This document shows positions 1 through 17,485 of a DNA stretch of 64,000 bases, one piece after another (positions within the stretch are counted from its first letter, which is position 1; each line of letters starts with the position of its first letter). The stretch is taken from positions 224,001 to 288,000 of the forward strand of contig CAVPLU010000004.1 in NCBI GenBank assembly GCA_963706285.1, in the 5' to 3' direction. The translations under genes were made by a program, and so were the position numbers. The notes beneath the pieces are model-generated. The model did not search any database, was not told the DNA's origin, and saw only the letters and a list, made by a program, of their open reading frames with translations. The DNA comes from Candidatus Bathyarchaeota archaeon. Lineage in GTDB: Archaea; Thermoproteota; Bathyarchaeia; 40CM-2-53-6.

Positions 1-8
1 CGGAATGT

Positions 9-2099: not shown

Positions 2100-2123
2100 C
2101 AGCGGAGCAGCTCCTCTGGCGTT

Positions 2124-2758
2124 TCAGTCTTTTCGTTCCAGCATGAGCTTTGTGATCTTTGTTCCGTATCTTTCCTTGTATTCGGTCAAGCACGGTTTGC
2201 AGCAGAAGTAGCGGTTTCTATCTCCGATCAGAAGTGTGACGGGGTCGCCATGTATTTCTTGTCCGCATGTGTCACAGGTGAGCTCTAACAAATTGGCCCG
2301 GGCGAATCGCAACGTTCGGTTCATCCTTGACAACCCGTGCCACCACATTGTAGGTGAGAGATGACACATTCGGTATCGACGAGATCGTCGATGCCAAGAA
2401 GTGTCTGAAGTTCATCCAGGCTGGCTGTGAACACCGTGAAGAGCACGTTGTGTTCGCCAGTCATTCCGTAGACGTTTCGTATCTCTGGCACCTTCGCCAG
2501 GGCATTGAGGACCTCATCAGCCTTACCGGGTTCTACCCTTGCTGTTGCGACCGCAAATAGTCCACTCGTTATCTTGGACGCGTCAATTATGGGCGCAATC
2601 TTCTTGATCAGACCCATATCCAACATTTTCCGCAGATGACTCTCGACAGTCGGCGTACTCACCCCGGCGGTGCGGGCGATATCTCTCAGGGAACGTCTAC
2701 CGTCTTCCGTAAGTGCGGTGAGAATGTGATAGTCTGTATCGTCTATTCGATTTGGCAA
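2124..2758 (-). CDS. Lrp/AsnC-family regulator with C-terminal TRASH domain (CopT/CopR-like), one frameshift near 2330; start approximate
   Basis: N-terminal HTH (DDTDYHILTALTEDGRRSLRDIA...VSTPTV); C-terminal CDTCG...YFCCKPC; convergent with copA. Confidence 0.8.
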
Positions 2759-2902
2759 GACACACACCAAGAATATGATTTGACAAGGGACATTAAAAGA
2801 GTTGTTAGAGCCATGCCCTGGACTCGACAGGATCAGGAAAACAAGCACTGGTCACCTTACTCCCGAGCGAGGCATGCTAGGGATAGGCTACGGCGGTCGG
2901 AA

Positions 2903-3707
2903 TCAGAGGCCCCAAGGGTTGGGTTGGGGCACCACGGCCATTATCGTTGAACTAAGCGCGACAACGGATATGACTGTGACGGCAATGAAACCAAGGTCAG
3001 CGTTGTGGAACCTCACATCTCTGAGGAAGGTCTTCTCAGCTCTTGACGAGAACCCGCGCGCCTCCAGGGCAATTGACCTCCTATAGGCTTCCTCTATCGC
3101 TCCCATCAGAAGTGGCGTGACAAGAGGAACGTATGTTTTGAGCCTCCGAACGATCCCGATACCTTCGAGTTGTAGTCCTCTCGACATTTGAGCCTGCTTC
3201 ACAGTTTGTAGTCTTGAGTCTATCGTAGGAACGATCTGGAATGCTGAGAAGAGTGGGTACGCGATTCTAAGTGGCAAGCCGAGCTTCTGCATTGAGGCCA
3301 TGAGATCTCCCGGACGGGTTGTCAGAGTGAGCAAGTATCCTCCACCGAAAATTGCCAAAAGGCGCGTCAGTAGGACAGCCGCAAAAACCAGTCCTTCACG
3401 TTTGAAATAGACCCATGGCAAGATGAAAAGAACGGGAGTCTTCCCAGCCGGATTGAAGAGCCCCTGAATAAGCAAGATCGGAATGAAGACTGGAAGAGAT
3501 ATCCTTCACTAGATTCTTGACGTAAACCGAGGCGACTCTTCCCACGGCAGATAGGATCACAGTGATACAGAACACCGCAAGACAGACAAGGATGCTATTG
3601 GAAACAACAGCCGGCAGCCCAATTGTGATCCACAGCGCAAGCTTGGTTCTGGGATCCAATCGATGGATCGGAGAGGAGCGCTGCACGAAAGTGAGTCGAA
3701 CAGACAA
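2903..3707 (-). CDS. ECF transporter transmembrane T component (frameshifted)
   Basis: SPIHRLDPRTKL N-terminus; AQMSRG and ALEARGF motifs. Confidence 0.88.
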
Positions 3708-3721
3708 TTGTGCTCTGTACT

Positions 3722-4329
3722 CTATGTTAGCGTCGTGTTGTCTTCACGAATTGAACTGGAACTCTCGTGTAGATCAGTCCACGCGATGAAGAACGTTATG
3801 ACCTTGTCCGAAATGTCCGAGATGAATTCTGCCGTCATGGATGCTGGGAAGACTTGCCAACCACCGGCCAAGAAGGCCGCGAAGATCGCGTCTACCCATG
3901 CTTTGCCTGTCGACCCGCCGTAAAGGTACACGTTAAGCGGCGTTGAGGTTAGGGTTGCCACGACTGCAAGAACCACGCTAATCGCGATCGTTCTGCCAAT
4001 CTGTGCTGGAAACTTGTATCTTTCCTGACGAACCCCAGCAACGCACATACGCCAGCTATGAGCCCAACTGCTGCATTGACTATTGCGTAAGGCAAGGCGA
4101 ATGGGTCGAACGTTACCCACTTGAAGACATTCGTGAGAATTCCTACGACTAACCCGTTGATGGGACCGATGATTATTCCCGCCAGCATAGAACCGAGCGT
4201 ATCAACCCAGATTGGCGTGCCCGCAGCTAGGTATGATGACGCGATGTTGATGCCGATCATTAGCGGGATCATGGCGATTCCGAAGGTGGAGAACTCTATC
4301 TTGAGTCTGGACGGTTTTGTTTCTGCCAT
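3722..4329 (-). CDS. ECF transporter substrate-specific S component (frameshifted)
   Basis: Hydrophobic; IWVDTLGSMLAGIIIGP and SDISDK motifs; lies within the A-A'-S-T operon. Confidence 0.8.
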
Positions 4330-4415
4330 CTCCTTCAGCCACGTGCCTAGGGTCCTATCGACTTGGATAATAATACTTACTCGGGACAAGACGCGCTACG
4401 TTGTCGCGAGCATGT

Positions 4416-5252
4416 TTAGCGAGTTAGCTCAACCATCTCCTCAACCGTCATGATGTCACGGCGAATCCCCAGATGTGAGAGGCTGATTGCCAATCGCGTG
4501 ACTTGCGGGGGCCGCACGCCTGACTGTTCAAGCGTTCCTGGATCGGACAGAATCCGTCTAGCTGATTCGTAGGCCGTTATCTCTCCATTGCACATCACAG
4601 CAACTCTCTCGCATTCTCTAGCAACAAATTCCATGTCGTGGGATATGATCACGACAGTCTTCCCGTCACGTTTTAGTTGTTCGAGAATCGAACCGAGTAG
4701 ACGTAACCCTCGGTAATCCTGTCCAGCGTTAGGCTCGTCCATTACCACAATATTCGGATCCATAGCGAGAACTGATGCGAGGCATAGCATCTTCCTTTGG
4801 CCATACGTCATGTTGTATGGGTGTTCCAATATGAAAGGCAACAGGCCAACCATGGACAGCGCGTTGTGTGTCGCACGTTCTATGCTTGCTTCATCCATAC
4901 CGATGTTCTTGGGCCCAAAGGCCACTTCCTCGATGACCGAGGACTCAAACAGCTGATCTTCAGGATTCTGAAAGACGTAACCCACCTCTCGAGCCATCTG
5001 ACTGGCAGACCTCTTCGAAGTGTCTATGCCAACCACGCTCACAGTCCCGGAAGTAGGTTTGAGGAGACTGTTCAAATGCTTTGCAAGCGTTGTCTTGCCA
5101 GCTCCATTCCTTCCTATGAGTGCCACAGTGCTCCCGGCCTCAATCTGGAGGTTCACATTCCTGAGCGCCTCGCGCCCGCTAGAATATTGATAGTGAAGAT
5201 TCTCAACGGAGACAGCCAATGGCACGTTACTCACCACAGAACTGTTTCTCAA
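4416..5252 (-). CDS. ECF transporter ATPase
   Basis: GRNGAGKT, VFQNPEDQL, MDEP, SHD motifs. Confidence 0.92.
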   Translation of the reverse strand: MRNSSVVSNVPLAVSVENLHYQYSSGREALRNVNLQIEAGSTVALIGRNGAGKTTLAKHLNSLLKPTSGTVSVVGIDTSKRSASQMAREVGYVFQNPEDQLFESSVIEEVAFGPKNIGMDEASIERATHNALSMVGLLPFILEHPYNMTYGQRKMLCLASVLAMDPNIVVMDEPNAGQDYRGLRLLGSILEQLKRDGKTVVIISHDMEFVARECERVAVMCNGEITAYESARRILSDPGTLEQSGVRPPQVTRLAISLSHLGIRRDIMTVEEMVELTR

Positions 5253-6090
5253 TCATCTCGGCCGCCTGGGACTCGTCGAGAGGATAGTCACCTCTCCACA
5301 GACCCTTTTCGTCCAACAGACCAGCTACCTGAGCGACTTGGGTATGTCGAACGCCAAGTTTCTCTGCGAACCGAACCTTCCTTGAGAACTCCTGCGGGGA
5401 ATCTAGCGCAACAATCTTGCCGTTGTTGAGGATACAGATCCTACTTGCATATTGAACGAGTGTCTCAGGTTGATTAGAAACCAAGATCGTCGTCATGGCG
5501 TATCTCTCATGAACAGAGTGGACTGCTCTCATGACGGAGACGGCACCCTCTGGATCCAGTAGTTCAGTCGGTTCATCCAAAATCATGATCTGAGGTCGCA
5601 TGGCAATCGCAGTAGCGAGGGAGAGTCTCTGCTGTTCTCCACCGGACAACTCGAAAGGCGCCCTTGTCTCAAATCCCGACAAGCCGACTGCGTCAAGCGC
5701 TTCTGCGATCCTATCCACCATAGCTTCCCTTGGGACTCCTAGGTTCTGAAGTCCAAAAGCCACTTCCTCCTCGACCGTCATGGCTGAACCGGTCATCTGT
5801 GAACGAGGGTCCTGAAACACGATTCCAACGAAACCCGATAGCTCCGACACCTCGCTTTTCCCAGTGTCAAAGCCTTTCACGCTGACAGTCCCTCGCATGG
5901 TTCCTTCGATGACATGTGGGACAAGTCCATTCAGTGAATGACAGAGTGTTGACTTGCCCGCGCCTGAGGGGCCAGTAATCCCGACGAACTCGTTATCCAT
6001 CACTTCTATGGTGATTCCATCCAGTGCCCAATCAACCCGTGAAAGGTAGCGAAAAGCCAGGTCAGAGATTGTGATCGCAGCGGAGGCCAT
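5227..6090 (-). CDS. ECF transporter ATPase
   Basis: GPSGAGKS, FQDP, LSGGEQQR, LDEP; likely start MASAAITI at 6090. Confidence 0.92.
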   Translation of the reverse strand: MASAAITISDLAFRYLSRVDWALDGITIEVMDNEFVGITGPSGAGKSTLCHSLNGLVPHVIEGTMRGTVSVKGFDTGKSEVSELSGFVGIVFQDPRSQMTGSAMTVEEEVAFGLQNLGVPREAMVDRIAEALDAVGLSGFETRAPFELSGGEQQRLSLATAIAMRPQIMILDEPTELLDPEGAVSVMRAVHSVHERYAMTTILVSNQPETLVQYASRICILNNGKIVALDSPQEFSRKVRFAEKLGVRHTQVAQVAGLLDEKGLWRGDYPLDESQAAEMIEKQFCGE

Positions 6091-6253
6091 CAGGCGAGTT
6101 CCCTTATACACTCTAAAATGTCTCTTACATAAAGCGGATTTTGGACTCAGCCTAGTATTGGCAGACATGTCGAATCGGGCGAACCGCACGAGCGGCTCGG
6201 CTAATCGCAAGTTATTAACTTGAGAACTCATTCCAATCACCGAGGCCAAGTTC

Positions 6254-6480
6254 GTGGCCGGTTCGGCGAGTAGGCCTCGGAGCCAAGTGGCGACGACTGG
6301 CAGGAGGGGTCTGGTCCTTGAGTTGTCCTTCGCAGCGATATACGCAGTGGCCGTTGTGGCGCTTGGCCCTATTAGTTATGCTGTGATCCAGATCCGCATT
6401 GCAGATGCCCTGATTCCGCTCTCCATTGTCTTTGGTCTCCCGGTGGTCTTAGACGTCACATTGGGAAACATCGCTGAAAA
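6254..6480 (+). pseudogene. Truncated QueT-like S-component fragment
   Basis: AAIYAV...PISYAVIQIRIADAL..L..FG...VTLGN resembles the QueT N-terminal half; similarity stops abruptly and the ORF runs into the tRNA. Confidence 0.6.
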
Positions 6481-6572
6481 GCGGCTGAGCGAATTAGCTC
6501 GAGAGGTCAATCAATTCAATCTCAAATCCAGAGCAGATCGCCATCAGATCAAGACGATTATCAGAGAGATTA

Positions 6573-6678
6573 TGGAGCCCCGGCCGAGGTTTGAACTCGG
6601 GACCCTTGCCTCTTCAGTCTTCGTTACCAAGGCAATGCTCTCGGCTGCAAAGCATCTACCAGGCTGAGCCACCGGGGC
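6573..6678 (-). tRNA. tRNA-Thr(GGT) with two introns (16 nt at ~22/23, 6640-6655; 13 nt at 37/38, 6612-6624) and encoded CCA
   Basis: Removing both inserts gives a 77-nt cloverleaf GCCCCGG-TG-GCTC-AGCCTGGTA-GAGC-A-TTGCC-TTGGTAA-GGCAA-GGGTC-CCGAG-TTCAAAC-CTCGG-CCGGGGC-T-CCA; TTTATTA box ~26 nt upstream. Confidence 0.93.
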
Positions 6679-6926
6679 TGCGGTTCAGGTCAGGATGATC
6701 TTCTAATAAAGTTTCGATCAGGAGCGAACAGTTCACTTTCGCTGACACATCTATGCTAAGTTGCGGCTCTGAAATGACAAAAACATGATCATGTCCGTCA
6801 TCATCATCTGCCAATTGCTCAAGCAGAGATTTGTCTATTCGCCGCTCGTCAAACGCTTTTACCAAATGTTTAAGACTACTCTGCCATTCACGTTGGTCAA
6901 CGAATCATAAGGAGGAAGAATGAATA

Positions 6927-7781
6927 TTGGTTAAGCGATGTCCAACATGCGGATACAACAACAGAGACGATGCCGTCTTCTGCTCAAGCTGCGGCGGTTC
7001 ACTTGCTGCCGCTGGAGCACCAATGATGAAACCAGTGCCGTCAGTTCGTGTGGTAACTCCGGTCACGTCAGGCGCCCCAATGAGGGTTCCAGCACCAGGA
7101 ATGTGTTTCTACCACCCGAGCCTTCCAGCTGTGTACATATGCAACCGTTGTGGCAGAGCAATCTGCCGTGACGACTCGAAGTCCTACATGGACCTAGTCC
7201 TCTGCCCACAGTGCTACCAAGGAATTGTGCCGCCGATGGCTATGGCTCCCCAAGCACCACAATACGCGCCAGCACCACAATACGCGCCAGCACCACAGTA
7301 TGGACCAGCATACGCACCACCACAATTTGCGCCTGGACCACAATTTGCCGGACCGATGATGGGCCCTATGGGAGCTCCCATGATGGGAGCCGGACCTGCA
7401 AGGTCGCTATGGGCTTTCATACTCGCCTTGGTTTCAGGAATTCTTGTGCTGCTCAACGCGGGACTGCTGCTAGCGTGGCAATTCTACGGCGGAACATTCC
7501 TTTGGGCGAACATATTCTTCTGGATCTGCAACATTGACCGTTCCACAGGATGTCCACTGCCTTCAGGATCTACTGCGACTGGCACGATCACATTCGTGAT
7601 CGGAGCAATCATAGGCCTAATCATAATCGTCGGATCGATTATGATGATCCTAGGATACGGCACAATCGGCAGCCTCATCATTTTCCCGCTAGCCGTCTTC
7701 AGCCTGATCATAGGCGGCGGCTTCATCGCAGGCTTCGTACTAGGCATCATCGCCGGTATCATGGGCATGTTAGGGCGATAG
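6927..7781 (+). CDS. Zinc-ribbon + B-box-like zinc finger + Pro/Tyr-rich linker + C-terminal multi-TM protein
   Basis: CPTCG-x-CSSCG; C-x2-H-x8-C-x2-C-x4-C-x2-D-x9-C-x2-C; APQYAP repeats; at least 3 hydrophobic helices; GGAGG SD upstream. Confidence 0.8.
   Translation: MVKRCPTCGYNNRDDAVFCSSCGGSLAAAGAPMMKPVPSVRVVTPVTSGAPMRVPAPGMCFYHPSLPAVYICNRCGRAICRDDSKSYMDLVLCPQCYQGIVPPMAMAPQAPQYAPAPQYAPAPQYGPAYAPPQFAPGPQFAGPMMGPMGAPMMGAGPARSLWAFILALVSGILVLLNAGLLLAWQFYGGTFLWANIFFWICNIDRSTGCPLPSGSTATGTITFVIGAIIGLIIIVGSIMMILGYGTIGSLIIFPLAVFSLIIGGGFIAGFVLGIIAGIMGMLGR
7254..7307 (+). repeat. In-frame 18-bp tandem repeat (APQYAP x3)
   Basis: gcaccacaatacgcgcca twice exactly, third copy gcaccacagtatggacca. Confidence 0.9.
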
Positions 7782-7797
7782 TCCTTAAATCCCCCCA

Positions 7798-7809
7798 GTT
7801 TTTTTCTTT
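7798..7809 (+). terminator. Archaeal oligo-T terminator candidate
   Basis: GTTTTTTTCTTT ~17 nt after the stop codon at 7781. Confidence 0.5.
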
Positions 7810-7823
7810 AACTTAGTATCCGT

Positions 7824-9478
7824 TTGGTCGTGTGTTCCGTGTCGTATGTGGCGATCTCCGGCCAAGTAGCCGAGAAGTTGGTTAGGGAGGCGAGAGATCA
7901 TCCAGAAGAGCAGGTCGTCGGTGTGTTGCTCGGCGGACAGTTCGGCAGCACCATTTCCATTGAAGATGCAGCGACAGGACCTGCCAACGCGGACGCCACA
8001 AAGGCAACGCTGACCGGGGATTCGATCGCAAGAATAGCGGATGACATAATCAATAAGAGAATAAGAGGAAGTATCGTTGGTTGGTATCATTCTCATGTTC
8101 GCGGTGGCGTCTTCATGTCCGAGACGGACGTGGAAACGCAGCTCAAACTTCAACAGTTTTCTCCTCTGGTGACAGCAATGGTGATTGACACGCAAACAGG
8201 AACATCAGGATTCTTCAGGGCTGACCCGAAGACGCGAGAGGCGGTGTCTGTGCCTTCGCAGAACGCAAGGGCCGAAGTTCATCGCCCGGATCCGCATCCT
8301 ACTATGCGCCTGAGCGAGCGACGTACCCGCAATATCCGACGCCCATGACCCAGGGCCCGTCAACTCGTACACTGTTGCTGGCACTTCTGATTATCACATT
8401 GGCCGTAACAGGAGGCATCCTGGCGCTGGTATACTACCGCAACCCAACAGTCTCCGGTGGCAGTGGTAATCTCGCGATAACTCATGCTCCACCTAGCGGG
8501 CCATTCACGATCGGGAGCCCTATAACGATCGATGCAAACGTCACCGGCTCTAAACCTACTGAACGTCACGTTGGCCTACAAGATAATCGAAGCAGCTCCC
8601 AACTCCCAGGGCGGATTGATCATTGGAAACTTGGTTCAAGTGCCCATGCTTCCGAGATCCGCAGGAGTGCACGAACCACCTGCACGTATTCGTACACTTT
8701 GCCGTCGTCTGAAATATCCGGAGTCTATGTTCAGTACTACATTTCCGCCTTCGACACTGCTTCCCCGCCTAATATTGTTCGCACTGATATCTACACTCTC
8801 AATGTGGGAGATTTCAGTTGGCGTGATGACACGACCGAGGTAGTTGCCATTCGACAAGCCCAGGCTGGCATATCACTTCCCTTGGATTCGATTAATGGCT
8901 TCAGTGACCTCATCACCATCAGAATCCTCACTCAACCGCCGCTAGGAGTTCGAATAGTTCCTATCAGCACGCAAGTTCGTCCTCCAAACGCCGCCAACCT
9001 AATAATAACCAGCACTGAAAACGCGCAGATCAGTTACAAGTACCCGATTCAAGTCGATGCCGTGTATACTGTACGCAACGTGCAGGTAATACGCTCCACA
9101 ATACTGCAGCTCACGTTGACTGACATCGACATCGCTGTCTCGCCAACCTACGCGAAGACCCAGCAATGTTATGCCTCCGATAGCTGCCTTGACTCGAATG
9201 AGTTCGCACAGTACACTGTGACGCTTACGATCTACGACGGATTTACCGCCCCGAACGGTATCCAACTGTTCCCAAGTGGTCTTCCGGATCATACTCGCTA
9301 CGAGATTCTGTTGGTCAGTCAGAAGATTGGCACGGACGAAACGCAGACATTAACTTACTCTCTCATAGTTCGCGCTGATACAGATTCCACTGTGAACAGG
9401 TACCTCTTTTCAATGATAGTCAGGGCCGGAAGTATCACACACAGTGTGGACAACATACAGTTTGAGATCGTGGACTGA
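7824..9478 (+). CDS. JAMM/MPN+ (Rpn11-like) isopeptidase probably fused to a single TM helix and extracellular beta-sandwich domains (frameshifts near 8270 and 8550-8670)
   Basis: VVGVLLG...VGWYHSHVRGGVFMSETD JAMM motif; the frame of the 8345 ORF stays open upstream as SASYYAPERATYPQYPTP, linking to TM LLLALLIITLAVTGGILALVYY; repaired ectodomain reads NVTLAYK...VPM...YSYTLP...VQYYISAFD. Confidence 0.78.
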
Positions 9479-9519
9479 TTGACGCAGACTTGATCGCTTG
9501 CTGGAGGTGAAAGAAGCAC

Positions 9520-9771
9520 TTGAAACTCTTCGTTCAGGCACCTATTGGGCCGCAGACAGGGCTGGCTGAGATTGATGTTATACCGGATCATACAGTCGGA
9601 GAGATCAAGCAGCAGGTATGCACCTCGTTCGGAGTTGACCCTGCTACGGTCGCGTTGATGTACGGCGGCATCATACTTGACGAGTCCAGCACAGTCAGCA
9701 GAGCCGGGATCCCTGAGAATGCCCAACTCGCACTGATGCCCTACAATATCATCGGTGGCAACGGAAGGTGA
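9520..9771 (+). CDS. Ubiquitin-like modifier (eukaryote-type beta-grasp) with C-terminal GG-NGR pro-extension
   Basis: MKLFVQ...IDVIPDHTVGEIKQQV...GVDP....LMYGGIILDESSTV...GI....L...GG follows the ubiquitin pattern; GGAGGTGA SD. Confidence 0.9.
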   Translation: MKLFVQAPIGPQTGLAEIDVIPDHTVGEIKQQVCTSFGVDPATVALMYGGIILDESSTVSRAGIPENAQLALMPYNIIGGNGR

Positions 9772-10361
9772 ACCTTCCGCTTCTCTACAAGGAGAAGAAT
9801 TTCACAAACCACCAATTCCCAACGGTAATGGCTCTCAATGATCCGCCCACGGCATACGAGGGTATGCTCAGGTGCGAGAAGGGAGAAGTGAAGACTCTCG
9901 CCGAGAAGAAGATCTGGCCCTTCACCGAGTATGCGGACTGGAACAGGTTCAGGCTAGAACTTCCGGACGAGTACCCCGTGAAGCCTCCCAAAGCGATTTG
10001 GCTCTCCGACATCTCCCACCCAAACATAGTCCCCAAGGTCATGAATGCCGTCTGCGTCTCTATCATCGGCGAGAACTGGCGTCCCGACCTGAAGCTTGTC
10101 TCTGTAGTGAACGCTCTTTACTACCTCCTGTCTGATCCAAACCCTGACAACGTATTCGACCACCCCGATTGCCTCAAGGCTGCAAACGTCTGCAGATCAT
10201 ACGGATTTCCAAAAATGACAAAGCGAAAGACCGCGACACAGCAGGGCGATCTTGTTCGATTCAACATCGTTCCTGTACCTCAAACGCGGCCAAGAGAGCC
10301 TGCACCGACGGGAGATGTGATACGATTTCGAATCCTTGACAGGGAGCGAAAGGAACATTAG
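9768..10361 (+). CDS. E2 ubiquitin-conjugating enzyme (UBC fold) with C-terminal tail
   Basis: FRLELPDEYPVKPPK, HPNI...VCVSII..NWRP...L..V...LLSDPNPD; overlaps the Ub stop (GTGA). Confidence 0.93.
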   Translation: MNLPLLYKEKNFTNHQFPTVMALNDPPTAYEGMLRCEKGEVKTLAEKKIWPFTEYADWNRFRLELPDEYPVKPPKAIWLSDISHPNIVPKVMNAVCVSIIGENWRPDLKLVSVVNALYYLLSDPNPDNVFDHPDCLKAANVCRSYGFPKMTKRKTATQQGDLVRFNIVPVPQTRPREPAPTGDVIRFRILDRERKEH

Positions 10362-11618
10362 TTGAAAGTAAAGCTCTCGATGCCGTCTGTTCGAGACATA
10401 GAACTTGACGTTCCTTCAACAGCAACGATCAGTCACCTAAAGGAAAAGGCATGCAAGAAGTTAGGAATCGAGTCTGACCTGACAAGCATCCTATGTGATG
10501 GTGCTCGGATTGATGGGAAGCGAAGCGTCGGCAGCCTCCATCTCAAGCAGAAGCTCCTGACAGTCGACTATCTCTGGGCTCGTCATCTAATACTTTGGGG
10601 GCCGGATGGGCAGAAACGACTGAGAGGTGCAACTGTACTTGTCGCTGGTGCGGGAGCGATTGGTAATGAGGTTGCGAAGAACCTTGCAATGCTCGGCGTC
10701 AAGCGCCTACTGATCATCGATAACGATACCGTCGAACTTTCGAACACGAGCCGAATGATCTTCTTCGATCGCAAGAGCCTGGGCTTGAACAAGGCGGAAA
10801 TGCTCGCCAGAGGAATCACCCAGAAGTTCCCCTATGTTGAGGCAATTGCATGGACCGGTGCACTCGAAGACCTCCCACTCGAACACATCCTAAGTGCCGA
10901 CGTGATCGTGTGCGGTCTAGACAACGTACTCTCCAGGATATACCTAGCACAAGTTTCCAGAAGGTACTCCATACCAATGGTAGACGGAGGCATCGTTGGG
11001 TATCGCGGACGTGTCCAAGTCTACGTTCCCCCAGACACGCCATGCCCGCTGTGCACATACCCATCCTCCGAATACGGCCGCATTGCAGGGCTCAGGAACC
11101 CCTGCGATGGGCCAGCTGAAGAAACGAAGGTCCCATCTCTTCCGACGACGATCTCGTTGGTTTCTTCGATCCAATGCCAAGAGGCGACCAAACTGATCGT
11201 TGGTTACCAAAGCTACTTGAGAACTGCGATTTGGCCGAAAGAGACCGGAGAACCGCTCAGGGGCGTGCTGATGATCGACTTGCAGTACAATCGTTACAGC
11301 CTGATGGAGATCAAGCGGAATAAGAGCTGCGTTGTGTGCGGGGAAAACGGGCTGGCCGAGAAGCCTGTGCCAGTGCTGACGATCCCGATAGGAGAAATTC
11401 GCGACTCAACCTCCAGACTGCATCAGATGGTTGCTAGCAGAATGAAACTGACAGCACAGCAAGTTATGTTGTTCTTGCAGCGTCAGAACAAGACAGTGCG
11501 AGTCGAGAAAGGGCAGTCTCTTCGGCGGGCACGCATCGGTGTGGGGAGCGTCATCACCGCGGTCGCACAAGATGGACCCGACTACAGTGAAGCTGTGGTC
11601 AGGCTCACAAAGCCCTAA
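10362..11618 (+). CDS. E1 ubiquitin-activating enzyme (ThiF/Uba) with N-terminal Ubl domain and C-terminal ubiquitin-fold-like domain
   Basis: VLVAGAGAIGNEVAKNL, DNDTVELSNTSR, LDN..SR, CPLC...NPC (candidate catalytic Cys)...CVVC. Confidence 0.92.
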   Translation: MKVKLSMPSVRDIELDVPSTATISHLKEKACKKLGIESDLTSILCDGARIDGKRSVGSLHLKQKLLTVDYLWARHLILWGPDGQKRLRGATVLVAGAGAIGNEVAKNLAMLGVKRLLIIDNDTVELSNTSRMIFFDRKSLGLNKAEMLARGITQKFPYVEAIAWTGALEDLPLEHILSADVIVCGLDNVLSRIYLAQVSRRYSIPMVDGGIVGYRGRVQVYVPPDTPCPLCTYPSSEYGRIAGLRNPCDGPAEETKVPSLPTTISLVSSIQCQEATKLIVGYQSYLRTAIWPKETGEPLRGVLMIDLQYNRYSLMEIKRNKSCVVCGENGLAEKPVPVLTIPIGEIRDSTSRLHQMVASRMKLTAQQVMLFLQRQNKTVRVEKGQSLRRARIGVGSVITAVAQDGPDYSEAVVRLTKP

Positions 11619-11728
11619 GCCTAGGGCACATAGATGAGGTAGTCGCATTGGAGCGTCCATGGATGATGGCTATCAAACGTAGCAATGGTTATTACATGTC
11701 TGAGGCGGTATCAGATTAGGTCTGGGTC

Positions 11729-12109
11729 ATGCGACAGTGTTTATCCTGTGGAAGTAGAAACTCCGATGACGCAGCCTTCTGTAGCATGTGTGGGCTCTCC
11801 TTTGCTGGAAGCCAACCGCAGCAGTATATGCAACCAGTCGGAGCGGCGATGAAACCCGTTCCAATTGTGAAAACGATCACCCCATTGGCGCAGGCAGGCC
11901 CGCAGCAGTGGCCAGTTCCAATGGCTCGGCCGCAGATGACGATCGGATCCTGCTCTTTTCACCCTGAGCTTCCGGCATCGTACATTTGCCTTCGATGCGG
12001 CAAGCAGATATGCTTCTCCTGCACGAAAACCTACGGTCAGCTGGCGATATGCCCTGAGTGCTACTGGGCACTTGCACCACGTACAGGCACAGCGCAGCCG
12101 GGACGCTGA
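11729..12109 (+). CDS. Soluble zinc-ribbon + B-box-like protein, paralog of 6927..7781
   Basis: CLSCG...CSMCG; MKPVP; C-x2-H-x8-C-x2-C-x4-C-x2-C-x9-C-x2-C. Confidence 0.82.
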   Translation: MRQCLSCGSRNSDDAAFCSMCGLSFAGSQPQQYMQPVGAAMKPVPIVKTITPLAQAGPQQWPVPMARPQMTIGSCSFHPELPASYICLRCGKQICFSCTKTYGQLAICPECYWALAPRTGTAQPGR

Positions 12110-12120
12110 AACGATCTTTC

Positions 12121-13727
12121 CTACGCGAGGAGCCCTTTCCTCTTCAGTCGCTCCGTGGATAGCTTGACCTCATTCACGGACAACCCAAGATCCTTCGAAG
12201 CTTGGCTAAGTGATATCTCACCATTTCGTTTCGCGATATATTGGTAGACTCGGTTATCCAGCTCCTCAAAGCCAACGGCGGCTGATGCCTGACCTCGCTT
12301 CCGGGCTCCAGCAACCGCGGTCCTGCGTCGTCTGACACCGGAGCTAAGCGATGAGCCCAGCCTTGCAAAAGATCTCGGGCGCTTCGCAATTATGAATATG
12401 ACAGCAGTGACGATTGTTGCTGCAGCGCCCAAAGAGACAATGAAGATCCACAAGGGTGCATAGTCTGTGACCCACTGTGCCTCTACTATGTAGGGTCGAT
12501 CCATCGTGACCTCATTTTCACCCGGTGGGACAGCGCTAATCACGTTCGAGGAATTGAGGCGCCAGCCAGCGAGCGTATGTTTCACTAATAGTTCTGACCC
12601 GCTGTAAGTCACATCAAACCTTGCTTTTTCCCCATCAAGATACCAGCCAGTACCTGTCGGTTCCCCAAATGAGGACGTTACCAGAAGGTAGTACTGTGTT
12701 TGATAGATCAACCGTACGTTGTGCGGTTTGTTCATCACAAGCTCCGCCGATGTTCCTGGCTGAGTCATGCCATCGATATTCCATGAAAGCCAGACAAATC
12801 GTTGAACCGAGCTTCCCGGGATTGAGATTATTTGAGGAACAGGTCCAAGAGAAGCAGTCTGGCCAGCATCGTACCAGGTGCTGTTAGGGGCTGAGATTTT
12901 CTGAGCAATGTCTGGTGGATCGTAAGTGACGTCCAATTTGTATTGTGTCTTGTATCTTGCAGTCACTGACTTGGGTCCATCCATGCGAGCAGACCCGTGG
13001 GAATCGGTACCTGTGTAGTCTCCTACCCATTGAACAAAGACCTGTCGAGTATCGGTTCCATTTGTTCCTTTAGGTGCAAGGAAATCTGCCGTAGATCCAG
13101 CGTCGAGCCAGAGAGTTGAGGGCGAGAAAAGTCCGACCGGATCATACGATATTCGAAGGATATACTGTGTCTTCCAGGTGGCAACGGCTTTCTTCGGACC
13201 ATTCATGACTATCGAGTCGGAGATTATTCCCTGCCCCGAGGCATCCTGTCCCCACTTGACAAACAGATATCTCACTCCTTCGGATCCGCTTGTCATGTTC
13301 GTGTCCAACCTGGCTTGAGCAGTTGTTCCCCCGTCGTACCAATCACTTCTAGACGGCGCTCCGTACTGAGAGACGACTTCGAGGTAGTATTGTGCCTTGT
13401 AGGTGAATGTGTGGGTGCCAGCTCCCGTGAAGGACCAGAGGTTGTCTCTGCATTGATACCTGGTTCCGTTGGCCCCGCCCACGTTTAGGTCGACGCTGAG
13501 CGTGTGCGCACCGCCAGGAGAGATGCTTAGGGTCTTCGTGTCGCCTGTTGCAATCGTTCCGTTTAGTATGCCGTCCAGGTAATATTGAGTTCTTGCTCCG
13601 CTGGAAGCCCTACCACTGTGAAGGAGACGGAGTACGCTTGAGCCTTCACGAGTGTCGGTGCGGTGACGAGAGAAATGAGGATCAGTGCGTCAAGTGCCAA
13701 GATGGCCAATCTAGTCCTCGACAACAT
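12121..13727 (-). CDS. Type I membrane protein: signal peptide, repeated beta domains, TM helix, cytoplasmic C-terminal winged helix (frameshifted near the N-terminus)
   Basis: ATG at 13727 with hydrophobic leader; repeats QY(Y/I/K)L.V.S...G...WY..G; TM LWIFIVSLGAAATIVTAVIFII; tail RVYQYIAKRNGEISLSQASKDLGLSVNEVKLSTERLKRKGLL. Confidence 0.75.
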
Positions 13728-13939
13728 GAAGGGTGGGCCTCCGCCACCCGTTTAGCATGTGTCTAGGCCTAAAATGTATTACACTCTCGGATCTGCCTTA
13801 TCGTGCCAAAACAGCAAGCCGGTAATCAATCTCTATGTCAGATTGACTGCGCCGATATGGAGGATGCGAAGCCTGACGATACGATTTGCCAAGCCCATGA
13901 GCGCAATCGTCATAACTAATTCGGCCCACTCACTGAGAT

Positions 13940-14245
13940 ATGGCTTCCACTCCGTACACGCGAGGCAGAAGTAGAGAATACCAAGTGCTGAAGAAACTGA
14001 GACGCGAAGGGTGGTACTGCAGCAGGAGCGCAGCATCTCACGGCCCCGTGGACGTCTTCGCTGGGAAGAACGGACTCGTCCGCATGATTCAAGTGAAGAG
14101 CGGGCAAGCCAGACTGAGGCCTGGAGACAGGGAGACCCTCAAGCTTTGGGCACAAGCTTACGCCGGAGTAGCTGAGGTCTGGTATTTTGGCAAGCGCGCA
14201 GGCACAAAAATAGAAGTGATTCTCGACGCAAGAACACGACTCTAA
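13940..14245 (+). CDS. hjc: Holliday junction resolvase Hjc-family nuclease
   Basis: GRSREY...L...GW...RSAASHGPVDVFA...IQVKS PD-(D/E)xK pattern. Confidence 0.8.
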   Translation: MASTPYTRGRSREYQVLKKLRREGWYCSRSAASHGPVDVFAGKNGLVRMIQVKSGQARLRPGDRETLKLWAQAYAGVAEVWYFGKRAGTKIEVILDARTRL

Positions 14246-14254
14246 CAACCTCAC

Positions 14255-15099
14255 TCACATATGAACGTCCAAGCAGACCTGGTAGCGACAAGGGCCAACA
14301 CTTCTGACCACATGTGATTCTATGTTGCCCTCCCCTGCACCTATCTGTCTGAAACACAGGACTCAACTTCGACAAAGCCTGCATGCTTGCCGCTGATCTA
14401 CGATTTGAGTCGATGAACACATAGCAGTGGACTACCCCGCAACCATTCTTCAATGCACTTTTCGCGGTCGGAAGAGACTGCAATGCCAATTCAGGCAACG
14501 GCAGCAGGACTCGATCAGCGCATCCGTTGAGAGAAAGAGGACACTAGCTGGTTCGCGTCTCCGCAGATCACATCTATTCTATCTCGTACTCGGTTGAGCA
14601 CGTTGTTCATGGCATGATAGCGAACGGCCGCTGGGTTGATGTCGAGGGAATAGACTCTTGAGGGGTGTGAGTGCTTCGCGATCATTATTGAGAAAGATCC
14701 CACTCCAGCGAAGAAATTTACAACACATTCTCCCTGAGAAACCAGGTCAGCAATTCGCTTTCGTTCATGACTGAGCCTCGGTGAGAAATACATCGTCTCT
14801 AGATCGACTCGGTATTGGCAGCCATGCTCGCGGTGTAGAGTCTCGGTCCGTTGCTCACCCGCCAACCATTCAAGCTTCCGGGTTCGAAACTGCGAACTAA
14901 CCGGACCCGTCTGTCCCAAGACGACTCTGAGGTTAGGTGCGAGATCAAGTAGGCTCTCCGCAATTTGGTGCTTTTCATGCTGAAATTCGTCGGGAAGCTT
15001 CAGGATCGCTATGTCTCCAACTATGTCAACACCTTTCTTGAGACGAGAAAGCTGTCCCATGTCAAGGAATTTCTTTGTAGATTTCGTGAGTAGCCTCAA
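14255..15099 (-). CDS. Trm5/Taw2 (Met-10+) family SAM-dependent tRNA G37 modification enzyme (frameshifted)
   Basis: DIVGDIAI, HREHGC...YFSPRLSHER, FAGVGSF, DINP motifs; adjacent to taw1. Confidence 0.85.
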
Positions 15100-15135
15100 T
15101 GTCGAACGCCACCGATCACCATTGAGGCTTCAGTC

Positions 15136-16152
15136 TCACAATTTGTCAAGCGAGAGATCTAGCGTAGATGAATCTCGTGCGAGAAGAACGACCCTGCTTA
15201 CCGTGTCCTCGGCGACATACTCGTATCCCGTGATTCTCGCAATTCGGTTTGCGAATTCTCTGATCTCGGAGTGATATGGCATTGCGGTGATCGGTAGTCG
15301 TTGCTTCGATTCTCCTAGCCAACTGTATCCCTTGAGCTCGACGATATCCACTGCTCCCTCTGCTACAAGTTTCGAGTACTTCTCTGGGCCGTTCATGTTC
15401 TCCCCCTTTACGAGTGTGAGCCTCAAGATTGTTCGGGATCGCTCGAAGCGACGCATCAATCGAAGGCTCGTCAGAACTCTCTGCCACGCGTCGGAAATTA
15501 TTGGGTGTGTCACGCTTTCGTACGTTTGACTATCTGGCCCACACAAGCTCAAGTACAGGTTCGTAGGCTCCGTCTTGCGTTCTGCAATCTCTTCAAGTCT
15601 TTCAGGCATGGTGCCGTTGGTTACTAGGAAAGATGTCATTCCCTTTCGATCGATCTCGCGGATGAGCGACCCGATGTGTGGGTAGAGAGTTGGTTCCCCA
15701 TCGAGAGAGATTGCGACGTGCTTAGGGTTCATCGATTCTTCGAACAGTTTCCCCGTTACATGTGGATTTGCTTTGAAGCCAGAGAGGAGTTTCCGCTGTG
15801 CCATAATGGCTTCATCCAGAATCAAATCGGGAGGATCCCAAGCTTGTTCCGAGTTGAATCGTTCACCTGTGTGGAAGCGCCAACAGAAGATGCAACGTAG
15901 GTTACAGAACTGCAGTGAAGGAGTAAGCTGCAGGCACATGTGACTCTGGATACCATACCATCTCTTGTAGCATAGTCTGCGTCCCATGAGTGCAGAACGT
16001 GCCCATCTGCAGATCTGAATGCCTGAGTGTCTTCCCACAAGCCTGTAACCTGCTCTGAGGTATCTTCGTACCGTGACCGGCCTGAAGCTCGACGGCGTCT
16101 GGCTGAGCGGAGATCTCGGCATCATTCTGGTTTGGGCCTCCGCATCGAGCAA
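15136..16152 (-). CDS. taw1: 4-demethylwyosine synthase Taw1 (radical SAM)
   Basis: CYKRWYGIQSHMC, CNLRCIFCWR, HVAISLDGEPTLYP, FLVTNGT. Confidence 0.93.
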   Translation of the reverse strand: MLDAEAQTRMMPRSPLSQTPSSFRPVTVRRYLRAGYRLVGRHSGIQICRWARSALMGRRLCYKRWYGIQSHMCLQLTPSLQFCNLRCIFCWRFHTGERFNSEQAWDPPDLILDEAIMAQRKLLSGFKANPHVTGKLFEESMNPKHVAISLDGEPTLYPHIGSLIREIDRKGMTSFLVTNGTMPERLEEIAERKTEPTNLYLSLCGPDSQTYESVTHPIISDAWQRVLTSLRLMRRFERSRTILRLTLVKGENMNGPEKYSKLVAEGAVDIVELKGYSWLGESKQRLPITAMPYHSEIREFANRIARITGYEYVAEDTVSRVVLLARDSSTLDLSLDKL

Positions 16153-16205
16153 GAATCTGCCGACCGCTTGACCGTTTTGAGTATGGCGAATTTGCCTCTT
16201 GATCT

Positions 16206-17348
16206 CTAACGATATGGGATGAATTCTCTGCCCAAGAGTTCTCTCGCGACGATCATCTTCATGATGTCTGATGTGCCGTCGCCGATCATAGATCCTCTGA
16301 TCTCTCTCAAACGGTATTCGTCAAGAGTCTCTGTTGTAAAGCCCACTGCTCCACGATTCTGTATACAGTCATTCACAACGTTGAATGCTACCTGCGGCAC
16401 CCAGAACTTTATCATGGCAGACTCTCTTGTGAATGGTTGATTCTTGTCCTTCAACCAGAATGTTCTGTAGCAGAGGAGCCTGGCTGCCTGAAGTGTCGTG
16501 TAGTCTTCGGCGATCCGAAATTGAACCGATTCAAACTTACCAATGGGGCTTCCGAAGGCTTTCCTTTGCTTCACGTATTCCATGGATTCCTCAAGCGCTG
16601 CCTCAGCCATTCCGACCGTCCAAAGCGCAATGTATGCACGCATAAGGTCGAAAGTTTCCATGACATAGTAGAAGCCCTTGTTTTCTTCTCCGATCAGGTT
16701 GCCCGCGGGCACGACCACGTCCTTGAGTACAAATCCCCCGAACGAGAACAACCTCCACCCAAGCGCGTCAAACAGATACTTCTCGAGACCCGCGCGATCA
16801 GTCTCGACGAGAAACATGCTGACTCCCTTGGCATCGTTCTTCTGCCCTGTTCTAGCCATGAGACAATACGCGGCGCACTCGTTGATGCCGGTGATACACT
16901 GCTTCTCCCCGTTGATCACATATTCACCGCCCTTCTTCACAGCGCGGGTTGAGATCGATCCCGCGTCCGAGCCCACACCAGGCTCTGTTGAGGCGATGCC
17001 GAGCATCTTCTCGCCGGTCGCGAGTGAACGCAACCACTTCTCCTTCAGCTGCTGCGATCCATGCAAGTAGAGTATCTCAGCCATGATGTCGCCTAGCGGT
17101 ATCTGCCAACCTGCTCGAGCGAGCTCTTCAACCGCGATCGCCATAGTCGTCGCATCGGATTCTTGACCACCATATTCCTTGGGCAATCTCAGACCAAGCA
17201 AGCCGGCCTTTCCCATTTTGCGGTAGATGTCCCATGGAAACTGGCCTTTTCGTTCGTACTCCCGAATCTTCGGAGCAACCTCTTTCTGCGCGAATTCCCG
17301 GACGGTACGTCCAAAGAGTTCCTGCTCTTCAGTGAAACTGAAATCCAA
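16206..17348 (-). CDS. Acyl-CoA dehydrogenase
   Basis: TEPGVGSD, INGEK, RKAFG.PI..F..VQF, IGDGTSDI motifs. Confidence 0.95.
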   Translation of the reverse strand: MDFSFTEEQELFGRTVREFAQKEVAPKIREYERKGQFPWDIYRKMGKAGLLGLRLPKEYGGQESDATTMAIAVEELARAGWQIPLGDIMAEILYLHGSQQLKEKWLRSLATGEKMLGIASTEPGVGSDAGSISTRAVKKGGEYVINGEKQCITGINECAAYCLMARTGQKNDAKGVSMFLVETDRAGLEKYLFDALGWRLFSFGGFVLKDVVVPAGNLIGEENKGFYYVMETFDLMRAYIALWTVGMAEAALEESMEYVKQRKAFGSPIGKFESVQFRIAEDYTTLQAARLLCYRTFWLKDKNQPFTRESAMIKFWVPQVAFNVVNDCIQNRGAVGFTTETLDEYRLREIRGSMIGDGTSDIMKMIVARELLGREFIPYR

Positions 17349-17485
17349 TTTCGTCTACCCCACCAAAGACGACAATTGAGCTACCTATGCACCGCTGATA
17401 AGCCTGCCCTTGAATTCCCTCGTCCGTCAAGTATCTCTAGCCGAAGAGTACCCCCAGAAGCTATCTTTTGTCGCTGAGACAGTGA

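Follow-up and report, generated by a model that had tools for sequence, protein, structure and literature searches.

A cluster of genes in a 64,000-nucleotide (nt) stretch of contig CAVPLU010000004.1 from a Candidatus Bathyarchaeota archaeon (the whole stretch is hereafter called the window) encodes a real, conserved archaeal ubiquitin system that is a variant of the Caldiarchaeum type. The cluster spans positions 6927–12109, where seven co-directional open reading frames (ORFs) on the plus strand make up six genes. Specifically, a zinc-ribbon/B-box protein with transmembrane (TM) helices is followed by a JAMM/MPN-domain protein with a TM helix and an ectodomain, a ubiquitin precursor, a ubiquitin-conjugating enzyme (E2), a ubiquitin-activating enzyme (E1) fused to a ubiquitin-like domain (Ubl), and a second, soluble zinc-ribbon/B-box protein. 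An earlier note on this DNA had described six co-oriented genes in which ubiquitin, E2, and E1 overlap or abut, and all of them lie on the plus strand where it placed them; the ubiquitin stop and the E2 start share 4 nt, and E1 begins directly after the E2 stop. With somewhat better than even confidence, we read the cluster as a vertically inherited, eukaryote-like ubiquitin conjugation system organized at the cytoplasmic face of the membrane, with the B-box proteins acting as ubiquitin ligase (E3) adaptors.

The three central genes support a complete ubiquitin, E2, and E1 set of eukaryotic type, judging from their sequences. The ubiquitin precursor (9520..9771, plus strand) is 83 amino acids (aa) long, matches the ubiquitin family PF00240 (E=8.5e-10; 38.7 bits, cut-off 25.4), and ends in IIGG-NGR. 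Among solved structures, it is closest to eukaryotic ubiquitin and to the ubiquitin-like protein of Caldiarchaeum subterraneum. The GG is invariant in 21/21 orthologues, all 79–98% identical to the window protein; the chain ends at GG in 8/21 and continues for 1–6 residues in the other 13/21. Only two lysines are present in the window ubiquitin, K2 and K30, the latter invariant. Across the order of Bathyarchaeia to which the genome belongs, this 79–98% identity to the window copy compares with 39–79% for E1 and 26–68% for the membrane JAMM protein, and the ubiquitin is under extreme purifying selection.

The E2 (9768..10361, plus strand, 197 aa) is the only one in the genome and matches UQ_con (E=1e-15; 58 bits, cut-off 27) over profile positions 48–118 of 140 only. 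Its HPN motif (H84, P85, N86) and catalytic Cys96 are invariant in 20/20 orthologues, and its best solved relatives are eukaryotic E2s (4e-13). The C-terminal tail is conserved and contains two [VI]RF-x-I motifs; more broadly, residues ~150–197 (window 10200–10361) hold two [DE]-x-[VIL]-[RK]-F-x-[IV] motifs with a Pro-rich stretch between them. The E1 (10362..11618, plus strand, 418 aa) consists of an N-terminal Ubl (res. 1–~68; ubiquitin domain E=2.1e-6), a ThiF adenylation domain (E=9.6e-48), two CxxC pairs, and a short crossover loop with Cys248. The GAGAxGNE ATP loop, C228/C231, C323/C326, and Cys248 are invariant in 16/16 sequences. UBA1 is its best solved relative (1e-25, compared with 1e-17 for MoeB), and its C-terminal region aligns with the C-terminal part of a Caldiarchaeum-like E1. 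The E2 and E1 motifs are thus as intact as the earlier note had read them, and its view of the modifier as ubiquitin-like rather than SAMP- or MoaD-like is borne out by the PF00240 match and the presence of an E2. A sulfur-carrier system of the SAMP/Urm1 type is excluded, since the gene between the PF00240 modifier and E1 encodes an E2; SAMP/Urm1-type systems have an E1 and no E2 (PMC11354881).

We compared 20 loci from 20 genomes, spanning 9 families of one order of Bathyarchaeia, using as queries the intact proteins of a sibling copy of the cluster described below. Ubiquitin, E2, and E1 are adjacent in 20/20 loci. The gene for the membrane-bound B-box protein lies upstream in 18/20, the other two being cut by contig ends, and the membrane JAMM gene sits between it and ubiquitin in 17/20. 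The soluble B-box gene follows E1 in 18/20 (one locus is cut and one lacks the gene), and a convergent gene for a membrane-tethered winged helix-turn-helix (wHTH) protein is present in 19/20, the remaining locus being cut by a contig end. An arrangement shared so widely across families is not due to chance. The flanking B-box and membrane JAMM genes, whose conservation beside ubiquitin, E2, and E1 the earlier note had left to be checked, are part of the conserved order and share its phyletic pattern.

Among 41 close relatives, the window genome included, 29 carry the E2, which is found in every sampled genome of most genera of the order. Across the class, it is present in 55/301 genomes, all but one of them in families f1–f10 of the window's order, and absent from other large families (f17 0/48, f22 0/71). 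Across the phylum, PF00179 occurs in 66/401 genomes, and two families hold a more canonical E2 (~1e-30; f43 17/17, f48 24/24). The profile of the membrane-bound B-box protein (E<=1e-15) is found in the same genera as E2 and in none of the genomes of g2 (0/6), g3 (0/3), or g5 (0/1); genus g13 is an exception in which only the TM half of the profile matches. The profile of the membrane JAMM protein matches at full length only in E2-positive genomes and elsewhere through its immunoglobulin (Ig)-like part only. The sole positive genome of another order has a JAMM domain with a TM helix and no ectodomain, and no soluble B-box gene after E1. Public records assign 49/55 related loci to Bathyarchaeia or Bathyarchaeota, two to "archaeon" only, and four to metagenome-assembled genomes (MAGs) with bacterial labels. 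Cluster contigs or proteins also appear under the bacterial names Acidiferrales, Acidoferrum, Methylomirabilota, Nitrospiraceae, Saccharimonadales, and [Eubacterium] cellulosolvens; the bacterially labeled records are probably mis-binned or contaminant sequence. The cluster is chromosomal and vertically inherited, and in the genomes searched it occurs almost only in one order of Bathyarchaeia.

The two zinc-ribbon/B-box proteins bracket the cluster. The membrane-bound one (6927..7781, plus strand, 284 aa) matches Zn_Ribbon_1 at E=1.1e-6 and zf-B_box at 17.2 bits (cut-off 24.1), and the soluble one (11729..12109, plus strand, 126 aa) at E=9.7e-7 and 20.9 bits. Both begin with a ribbon of the form C-x2-C-x3-N-x6-C-x2-C, continue through a conserved KPVPxV..TP linker (KPVPxVxVVTP in the membrane-bound protein), and enter a domain with eight metal ligands, C-x2-H-x8-C-x2-C-x4-C-x2-[C/D]-x9-C-x2-C, found in 36/36 sequences. 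The last pair is Cys-Cys, not His-His; the published B-box motif is CC/HCCCCHH (PMC4506424). The membrane-bound protein has Asp at the sixth ligand (C-x2-D) and carries the motif in 18/18 orthologues. Past the B-box, a Pro/Gln/Tyr-rich linker leads to 3–4 TM helices; in the sibling copy, the hydrophobic segments lie at residues ~171–189, 231–249, and 257–275. The TM part is DUF6114-like (atlas score 0.87 and a sub-threshold Pfam hit in one orthologue), a likeness we treat as a lead only. Other proteins of ~725–850 aa combine the DUF6114-like TM domain with the Ig-like ectodomain of the MPN protein (G016:C1:25796-27058; G000:C12:146139-146507), and because the two co-occur elsewhere in these genomes, they are probably shuffled surface-protein modules.

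Assignment of the zinc domain to the B-box family comes from its relatives. Among the soluble orthologues, 16/18 match zf-B_box (PF00643) at E<=0.01, with a best value of 5.3e-7. A domain-only profile retrieves 673 cluster representatives at E<=1e-3; among the 150 listed, 105 of the more distant ones were scanned, of which 73 match zf-B_box at E<=1e-3 (best 2.4e-16) and 15 match ANCHR-like_BBOX. On these grounds, the domain is a B-box. B-boxes are RING-like binuclear treble clefs (cross-braces) to which E4 ligase activity has been ascribed (PMC4506424). In the AlphaFold2 (AF2) model of the soluble protein, residues 1–26 and 70–118 are confident and the linker is disordered. The cysteines of the ribbon are spaced as in RanBP2/NZF fingers, and the ribbon can be superposed on those of TAB2 and Npl4 (NZF; Z 2.4–2.6, root-mean-square deviation (rmsd) 1.1–1.3, 26–27 residues). 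A prediction of the complex between E2 and the soluble protein scored 0.00, which is no answer and weighs neither for nor against binding, and searching for homologues of the soluble protein's B-box part by shared words gave a single candidate and was uninformative. Public records name the membrane-bound protein only "zinc ribbon domain-containing" or "hypothetical". A third zinc-ribbon/B-box paralogue of ~110–140 aa is encoded away from the cluster, beside a thermosome-like gene (G000:C4:447798-448106; L100:1417-1839, minus strand), and several relatives have similar third copies. The membrane-bound protein is a candidate membrane-embedded E3-like adaptor, and the soluble one a candidate soluble E3-like adaptor.

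The cluster contains no RING family above cut-off: Prok-RING_1 reaches 18.5 bits against a cut-off of 29.1 and falls on the zinc ribbon. Nor does zf-RING_2 match at E<=0.1 anywhere in the genome, which is 89% complete. The label "RING-less" in the earlier note is therefore correct as to family and otherwise nominal, since the B-box is a RING-like cross-brace and its genes occupy positions held by RING genes in a Caldiarchaeum-like locus.

The membrane JAMM gene is read in the window as two ORFs, a first piece with the JAMM/MPN domain (7824..8348, plus strand, 174 aa; JAB E=9.4e-14), truncated by a 1-base deletion near 8278, and a second piece with a TM helix and no Pfam family (listed ORF 8345..9478, open frame from 8225, plus strand, 377 aa). 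The AF2 model of the membrane protein (mean confidence, pLDDT, 79.8) contains a JAMM domain, a disordered Pro/Tyr-rich linker, a TM helix (res. 181–205), and β domains (res. 218–551) that form three tandem Ig-like β-sandwiches. Its JAMM domain superposes on the C. subterraneum Rpn11-like protease (CsRpn11, chain 6fnn_A) with a target-normalized TM-score of 0.81 and an rmsd of 2.4 over 148 columns, and also on CSN5, the two proteins that it resembles most in sequence and predicted fold. For the rest of the chain, the matches are to tandem Ig-like domains of a generic kind. The hydrophobic segments in this protein and in the membrane-bound B-box protein confirm the two TM-bearing components of the earlier note.

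The active site of CsRpn11 is formed by Glu24, His83, His85, Ser93, and Asp96 (PMC6043591). The window JAMM domain keeps HxH-x7-S-x2-D intact and has Gln30 at the position of Glu24 in an alignment to 6fjv. Among 14 membrane JAMM orthologues, this column holds Gln in 8, Glu in 3, Arg in 2, and Lys in 1, while H89, H91, S99, and D102 are invariant, so the membrane JAMM may not be the deubiquitinase. The genome encodes a second, soluble Rpn11-like JAMM of 147 aa, unlinked to the cluster (G000:C10:127522-127962; L095:1381-1824, minus strand), with an HD-domain gene and a SIMPL/DUF541-like gene as neighbors. This paralogue keeps the catalytic Glu in 18/18 sequences, and the full JAMM/MPN+ motif (PF01398) with Glu is found in it and not in the window copy. 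In 21 genomes, each with an E2, it forms a small ORF of its own, whereas 0/12 E2-negative relatives have any match. A third small JAMM in the genome is of the ordinary prokaryotic kind.

Convergent to the cluster lies the wHTH gene (12121..13727, minus strand), which is split in the window into a 453-aa ORF (12121–13482) and an N-terminal piece (13563–13727) and encodes a 572-aa protein in the sibling copy. The protein has the layout of a type-I membrane protein, with a signal/anchor, a β-rich ectodomain, a TM helix, a Lys/Arg-rich juxtamembrane tail, and a C-terminal winged helix. Its domains are Ig-like, with a zinc ribbon and HTH_24 in distant orthologues, the latter below the Pfam cut-off. 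The C-terminal piece comprising TM helix and wHTH has its best hit beside the cluster, in large ORFs, in E2-positive genomes, compared with two weak hits only, in short ORFs, in 12 E2-negative genomes. We consider this protein a candidate partner or substrate. It had escaped the component list of the earlier note, as had the unlinked soluble JAMM and the short Cys loop of E1.

The reference for this type of system is the C. subterraneum operon, which encodes ubiquitin, E2, E1, a small RING finger protein, and an adjacent Rpn11-like JAMM, and was reconstituted in vitro (PMC5654768, PMC6043591). We used as comparison a Caldiarchaeum-like locus (L104, genome G326), one of those with the more canonical E2. 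Where the two align, its JAMM is the same in sequence as the Rpn11-like chain solved from C. subterraneum. Here, a 75-aa zf-RING_2 protein (6.5e-10) directly follows E1, and a 250-aa protein encoded nearby (L104:10380-11132) carries a C-terminal zf-RING_2 domain (1.9e-9). By eye, about four hydrophobic, TM-like segments precede the RING of the latter, which makes it a membrane-linked E3 candidate that we did not find discussed in the available parts of the literature. The earlier note had regarded the architecture of the window cluster as unrecognized, and we found no published description of it (see below); a membrane-linked E3 candidate as such is not unprecedented, because the comparison locus holds this larger RING gene with hydrophobic segments.

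The Caldiarchaeum type and the window share the order of ubiquitin, E2, and E1 on one strand, a ubiquitin precursor that extends past GG, the HPN...Cys signature of E2, the two CxxC pairs of E1 together with its homologous C-terminal region, a nearby JAMM of the Rpn11-like kind, a small zinc-finger gene directly after E1, and a second zinc-finger protein with TM-like segments (by eye in L104). They differ in the zinc fingers themselves, both B-box and not RING-H2 in the window, and in domain order, the zinc domain being N-terminal to the TM region in the window and C-terminal in L104. Unlike its counterpart, the window JAMM runs in the direction of the other genes and continues into a TM helix and three Ig-like ectodomains; Gln, Arg, or Lys replaces its catalytic Glu in 11/14 orthologues, and the genome has an additional unlinked soluble JAMM. 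A separate domain of 60 residues holds the catalytic Cys of the C. subterraneum E1 (PMC11354881). From the first CxxC to the block that aligns next, the window E1 has 24 residues and the L104 E1 has 83, and the N-terminal Ubl is present only in the window protein. The L104 E2 matches UQ_con with 103 bits over positions 2–139, compared with 58 bits over 48–118 for the window E2, whose C-terminal tail is conserved. A further difference is the convergent wHTH gene of the window cluster, and over aligned parts window and L104 proteins are only 29–41% identical.

Eukaryotic membrane-embedded E3s place a cytosolic cross-brace zinc domain on a polytopic anchor, as the window protein would, here next to E2 and E1. 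The ligand pattern of the TRIM-type B-box, including Asp as alternative ligand, resembles that of the window proteins, which in contrast have no RING, coiled coil, or PRY/SPRY domain, end in a CxxC pair after 9 residues instead of HxxH, and bind E2 only putatively. The eukaryotic MPN+/MPN− pairs Rpn11/Rpn8 and CSN5/CSN6 combine, like the window genome, two MPN paralogues of which one has the full catalytic set; unlike the eukaryotic MPN− proteins, the Glu-less window copy keeps its zinc ligands and Ser and is membrane-anchored, and a heterodimer is hypothetical. Bacterial Bil and CBASS (cyclic oligonucleotide-based antiphage signaling system)-associated operons likewise hold Ubl, E1, E2, and JAB classes in one operon (PMC10557695), whereas the window E2 and ubiquitin belong to eukaryotic Pfam families, match no PADLOC defense model, and are inherited chromosomally and vertically. 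Against the PADLOC model library dated 2023, the generic adenylation core of E1 matches E1-E2 models (up to 1.1e-16), JAB hits are weak, and E2, ubiquitin, and both B-box proteins match 0 defense families.

The biochemical steps, E3 role, topology, and substrate that we infer for the system would be as follows. First, the 83-aa precursor would be trimmed to ...GG by a JAMM protease, likeliest the soluble paralogue, because it has kept the catalytic Glu. The Ubl-fused E1 would then adenylate ubiquitin and load it onto Cys248, from which it would be handed to Cys96 of the single E2. The two zinc-ribbon/B-box proteins would serve as RING-like E3 adaptors for the ubiquitin-charged E2, one embedded in the membrane by its DUF6114-like TM region and the other soluble. 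The membrane MPN protein with its three Ig-like domains would link the cascade with the cell surface. Because its MPN domain has kept the zinc site and usually lacks the general base, ubiquitin binding or a partnership with the soluble JAMM is a likelier role for it than cleavage. The convergent membrane-tethered winged-helix protein would be the likeliest dedicated client, and other membrane proteins may also be clients.

Several observations weigh against this reading. Both window B-boxes score under the Pfam gathering score. Foldseek of the B-box model against the PDB has no match at E<=1e-3 (CONSTANS B-boxes reach E~3), and VIA-align gives weak and mixed matches to FYVE (Z 5.1) and to PHD and RING (Z 2.5–3). 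The B-box domain profile finds no significant solved B-box among PDB sequences (TRIM28 B-box2 at E=0.4) and nothing below E=0.017, the top matches being CTCF, TraR, and L31 zinc fingers. In hhalign, the B-box alignments match two Caldiarchaeum-like RING proteins with only 9% and 22% probability. For the membrane JAMM, the change of Glu to Gln, Arg, or Lys argues against a deubiquitinase, and the conserved zinc ligands are unexplained if the protein is inactive. Furthermore, in family f2, the gene between the membrane-bound B-box gene and ubiquitin encodes linker, TM helix, and ectodomain without JAMM in the one locus read, and the other f2 locus has no JAMM match at the cluster. The membrane JAMM component proposed in the earlier note is present as a protein, without its catalytic Glu in the window's genus and without its JAMM domain in one f2 locus. 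Finally, Burroughs, Iyer and Aravind reportedly tied prokaryotic B-boxes in 2011 to membrane peptidases rather than to ubiquitin, and because of this tie the B-box proteins could work with the membrane JAMM instead of the E2.

The alternative to which we give limited but real credence starts from this last point: the cascade is real, and the B-box proteins are not E3s but ubiquitin receptors, substrates, or cofactors of the membrane JAMM or its ectodomain, the E2 being E3-independent or served by an unrecognized E3. The superposition of the ribbon on ubiquitin-binding NZF fingers of TAB2 and Npl4 is consistent with a receptor, although these matches are very weak and the ubiquitin-binding Thr-Phe dipeptide is absent after the first CxxC. 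The gene for the membrane-bound B-box protein adjoins the membrane JAMM gene in 17/20 loci; of the 105 distant B-box relatives, two carry an Rce1-like membrane protease domain and four DUF4190; and the sequence link to RING is insignificant, as the hhalign values show. Set against these points, the soluble B-box gene directly follows E1, in the position of the RING gene of the Caldiarchaeum-like operon, and B-box and E2 have one phyletic pattern.

An extension of the E3-adaptor reading that we consider unlikely makes the cluster a transmembrane ubiquitin signaling device. Here, the three-Ig ectodomain would sense a surface cue, the Glu-less MPN domain would be a pseudo-deubiquitinase that recruits or gates the soluble JAMM, the B-box proteins would be E3s, and reversible ubiquitylation of the Lys/Arg-rich tail of the wHTH protein would release or destroy a regulator. 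If true, this would be the first contextual link of prokaryotic B-boxes to ubiquitin and an archaeal forerunner of receptor-coupled ubiquitin signaling and of MPN+/MPN− pairs.

A third alternative concerns the state of the window copy. The same bin contains a sibling copy on a 32.8-kb contig (L003:8945-19913), which aligns to window 6500–17413 with 93.6% identity over 10,981 alignment columns; window 1–2769 also matches the sibling contig, at 91%, and window 2770–6500 does not. A true duplication was considered and set aside, as a co-binned related strain explains the sibling more simply (93.6% over 11 kb; bin contamination 7.5%). In the sibling, the membrane JAMM gene is a single intact 552-aa ORF (L003:10296-11954), whereas in the window it is broken into two ORFs and part of it is scrambled. 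Compared with the sibling, the window carries indels at 8278 (−1), 8552 (+1), 8664 (+1), and 8678 (−5) in this gene, leaving the segment ~8552–8678 out of frame, and single-base indels at 13602, 13734, and 13799, within or just upstream of the wHTH membrane gene. That two genes of the module have frame-breaking indels counts, like the observations above, against the main reading, and none of the indels lies in a long homopolymer. We nevertheless think it quite unlikely that they are real and that the module is decaying by partial pseudogenization in this genome. Intergenic one-base indels occur at a similar rate, as expected of uncorrected assembly errors; the frames are open downstream of the shifts and the encoded protein is conserved; one frame is restored in the sibling copy and in single related-strain contigs; and ubiquitin, E2, E1, and both B-box genes are intact.

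Throughout window 6500–13800, one-base indels relative to the sibling occur at ~1/kb in genes and spacers alike (e.g., 6519, 6893, 7798, 9481, 13602, 13734, 13799), a rate that suggests the contig is an unpolished assembly. Indels that would restore one frame are found at or near the same places in single low-depth contigs of related strains, which come from a DNA run and an RNA-library run: these contigs have the base that the window lacks at 8278 and lack single bases near 8552, 8665, and 8673. The window's own strain is in no sequencing run examined (best share of sampled words, 0.38). Assembly error appears the likeliest cause of the window frameshifts. Contigs from two RNA libraries, 88–99% identical and from related strains, cover parts of every gene except E1, and one of 401 nt spans the ubiquitin/E2 junction. 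Because RNA libraries may contain DNA, we take this as no more than a hint of expression, and the lack of coverage over parts of E1 carries no weight.

An antiviral or conflict system that tags viral proteins at the membrane, as in bacterial Bil or CBASS-associated operons, is very improbable and the antiviral role suggested in the earlier note is disfavored: although bacterial Ubl/E2/E1/JAB operons act in phage defense (PMC10557695), the E1 adenylation domain matches PADLOC E1-E2 models, and surface Ig-like ectodomains could sense particles, these PADLOC hits reflect the generic adenylation core only, the E2 has the eukaryotic HPN...Cys signature, the cluster holds one conserved chromosomal position beside the Holliday-junction resolvase gene Hjc in 17/20 loci and is in every sampled genome of most genera of the order, its ubiquitin is under extreme purifying selection, and a pattern-limited scan of a viral contig collection with the E2 alignment gave 44 pattern matches and no relative.

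In the literature searched, we found no publication on a Bathyarchaeia ubiquitin cluster, on ubiquitin operons that include a B-box, or on archaeal MPN proteins anchored in the membrane, although the archaeal clusters I–III in Supplementary Fig. 1 of PMC5654768 might include Bathyarchaeia loci; passages of PMC4327156, PMC4571572, PMC3930316, PMC11188069, and PMC8195603 also gave no such description. Archaeal ubiquitin systems offer the best view of the origin of the eukaryotic ubiquitin network, and those described so far, in Caldiarchaeum and Asgard archaea, use RING fingers and soluble Rpn11-like proteases. The E3-adaptor reading of the Bathyarchaeia cluster would mean that archaea had already recruited the B-box, as a second RING-like domain, beside E2 and E1, that complete and Glu-less MPN paralogues had already diverged, and that a ubiquitin system can be connected as a whole with the membrane and with a domain exposed at the surface. 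The gene set is compact (seven genes at the locus and one unlinked), comes from abundant wetland and soil archaea, and is amenable to in vitro reconstitution. Should the B-box proteins not be ligases, the locus would still define a conserved and wholly unannotated set of proteins.

Beyond the cluster, the Hjc gene (13940–14245; Pfam Hjc 4.9e-6) adjoins the module in 17/20 loci, with no functional link seen, and genes farther out are common to only 3–6 of the 20 loci, about those of the window's own genus. On the other side, an ORF at 6254–6667 matches the QueT transporter profile over positions 7–54 of 141 only and may be another frame-broken gene; upstream of it lie two genes for ABC/ECF-type ATPases on the minus strand (4416–5252 and 5227–6249).

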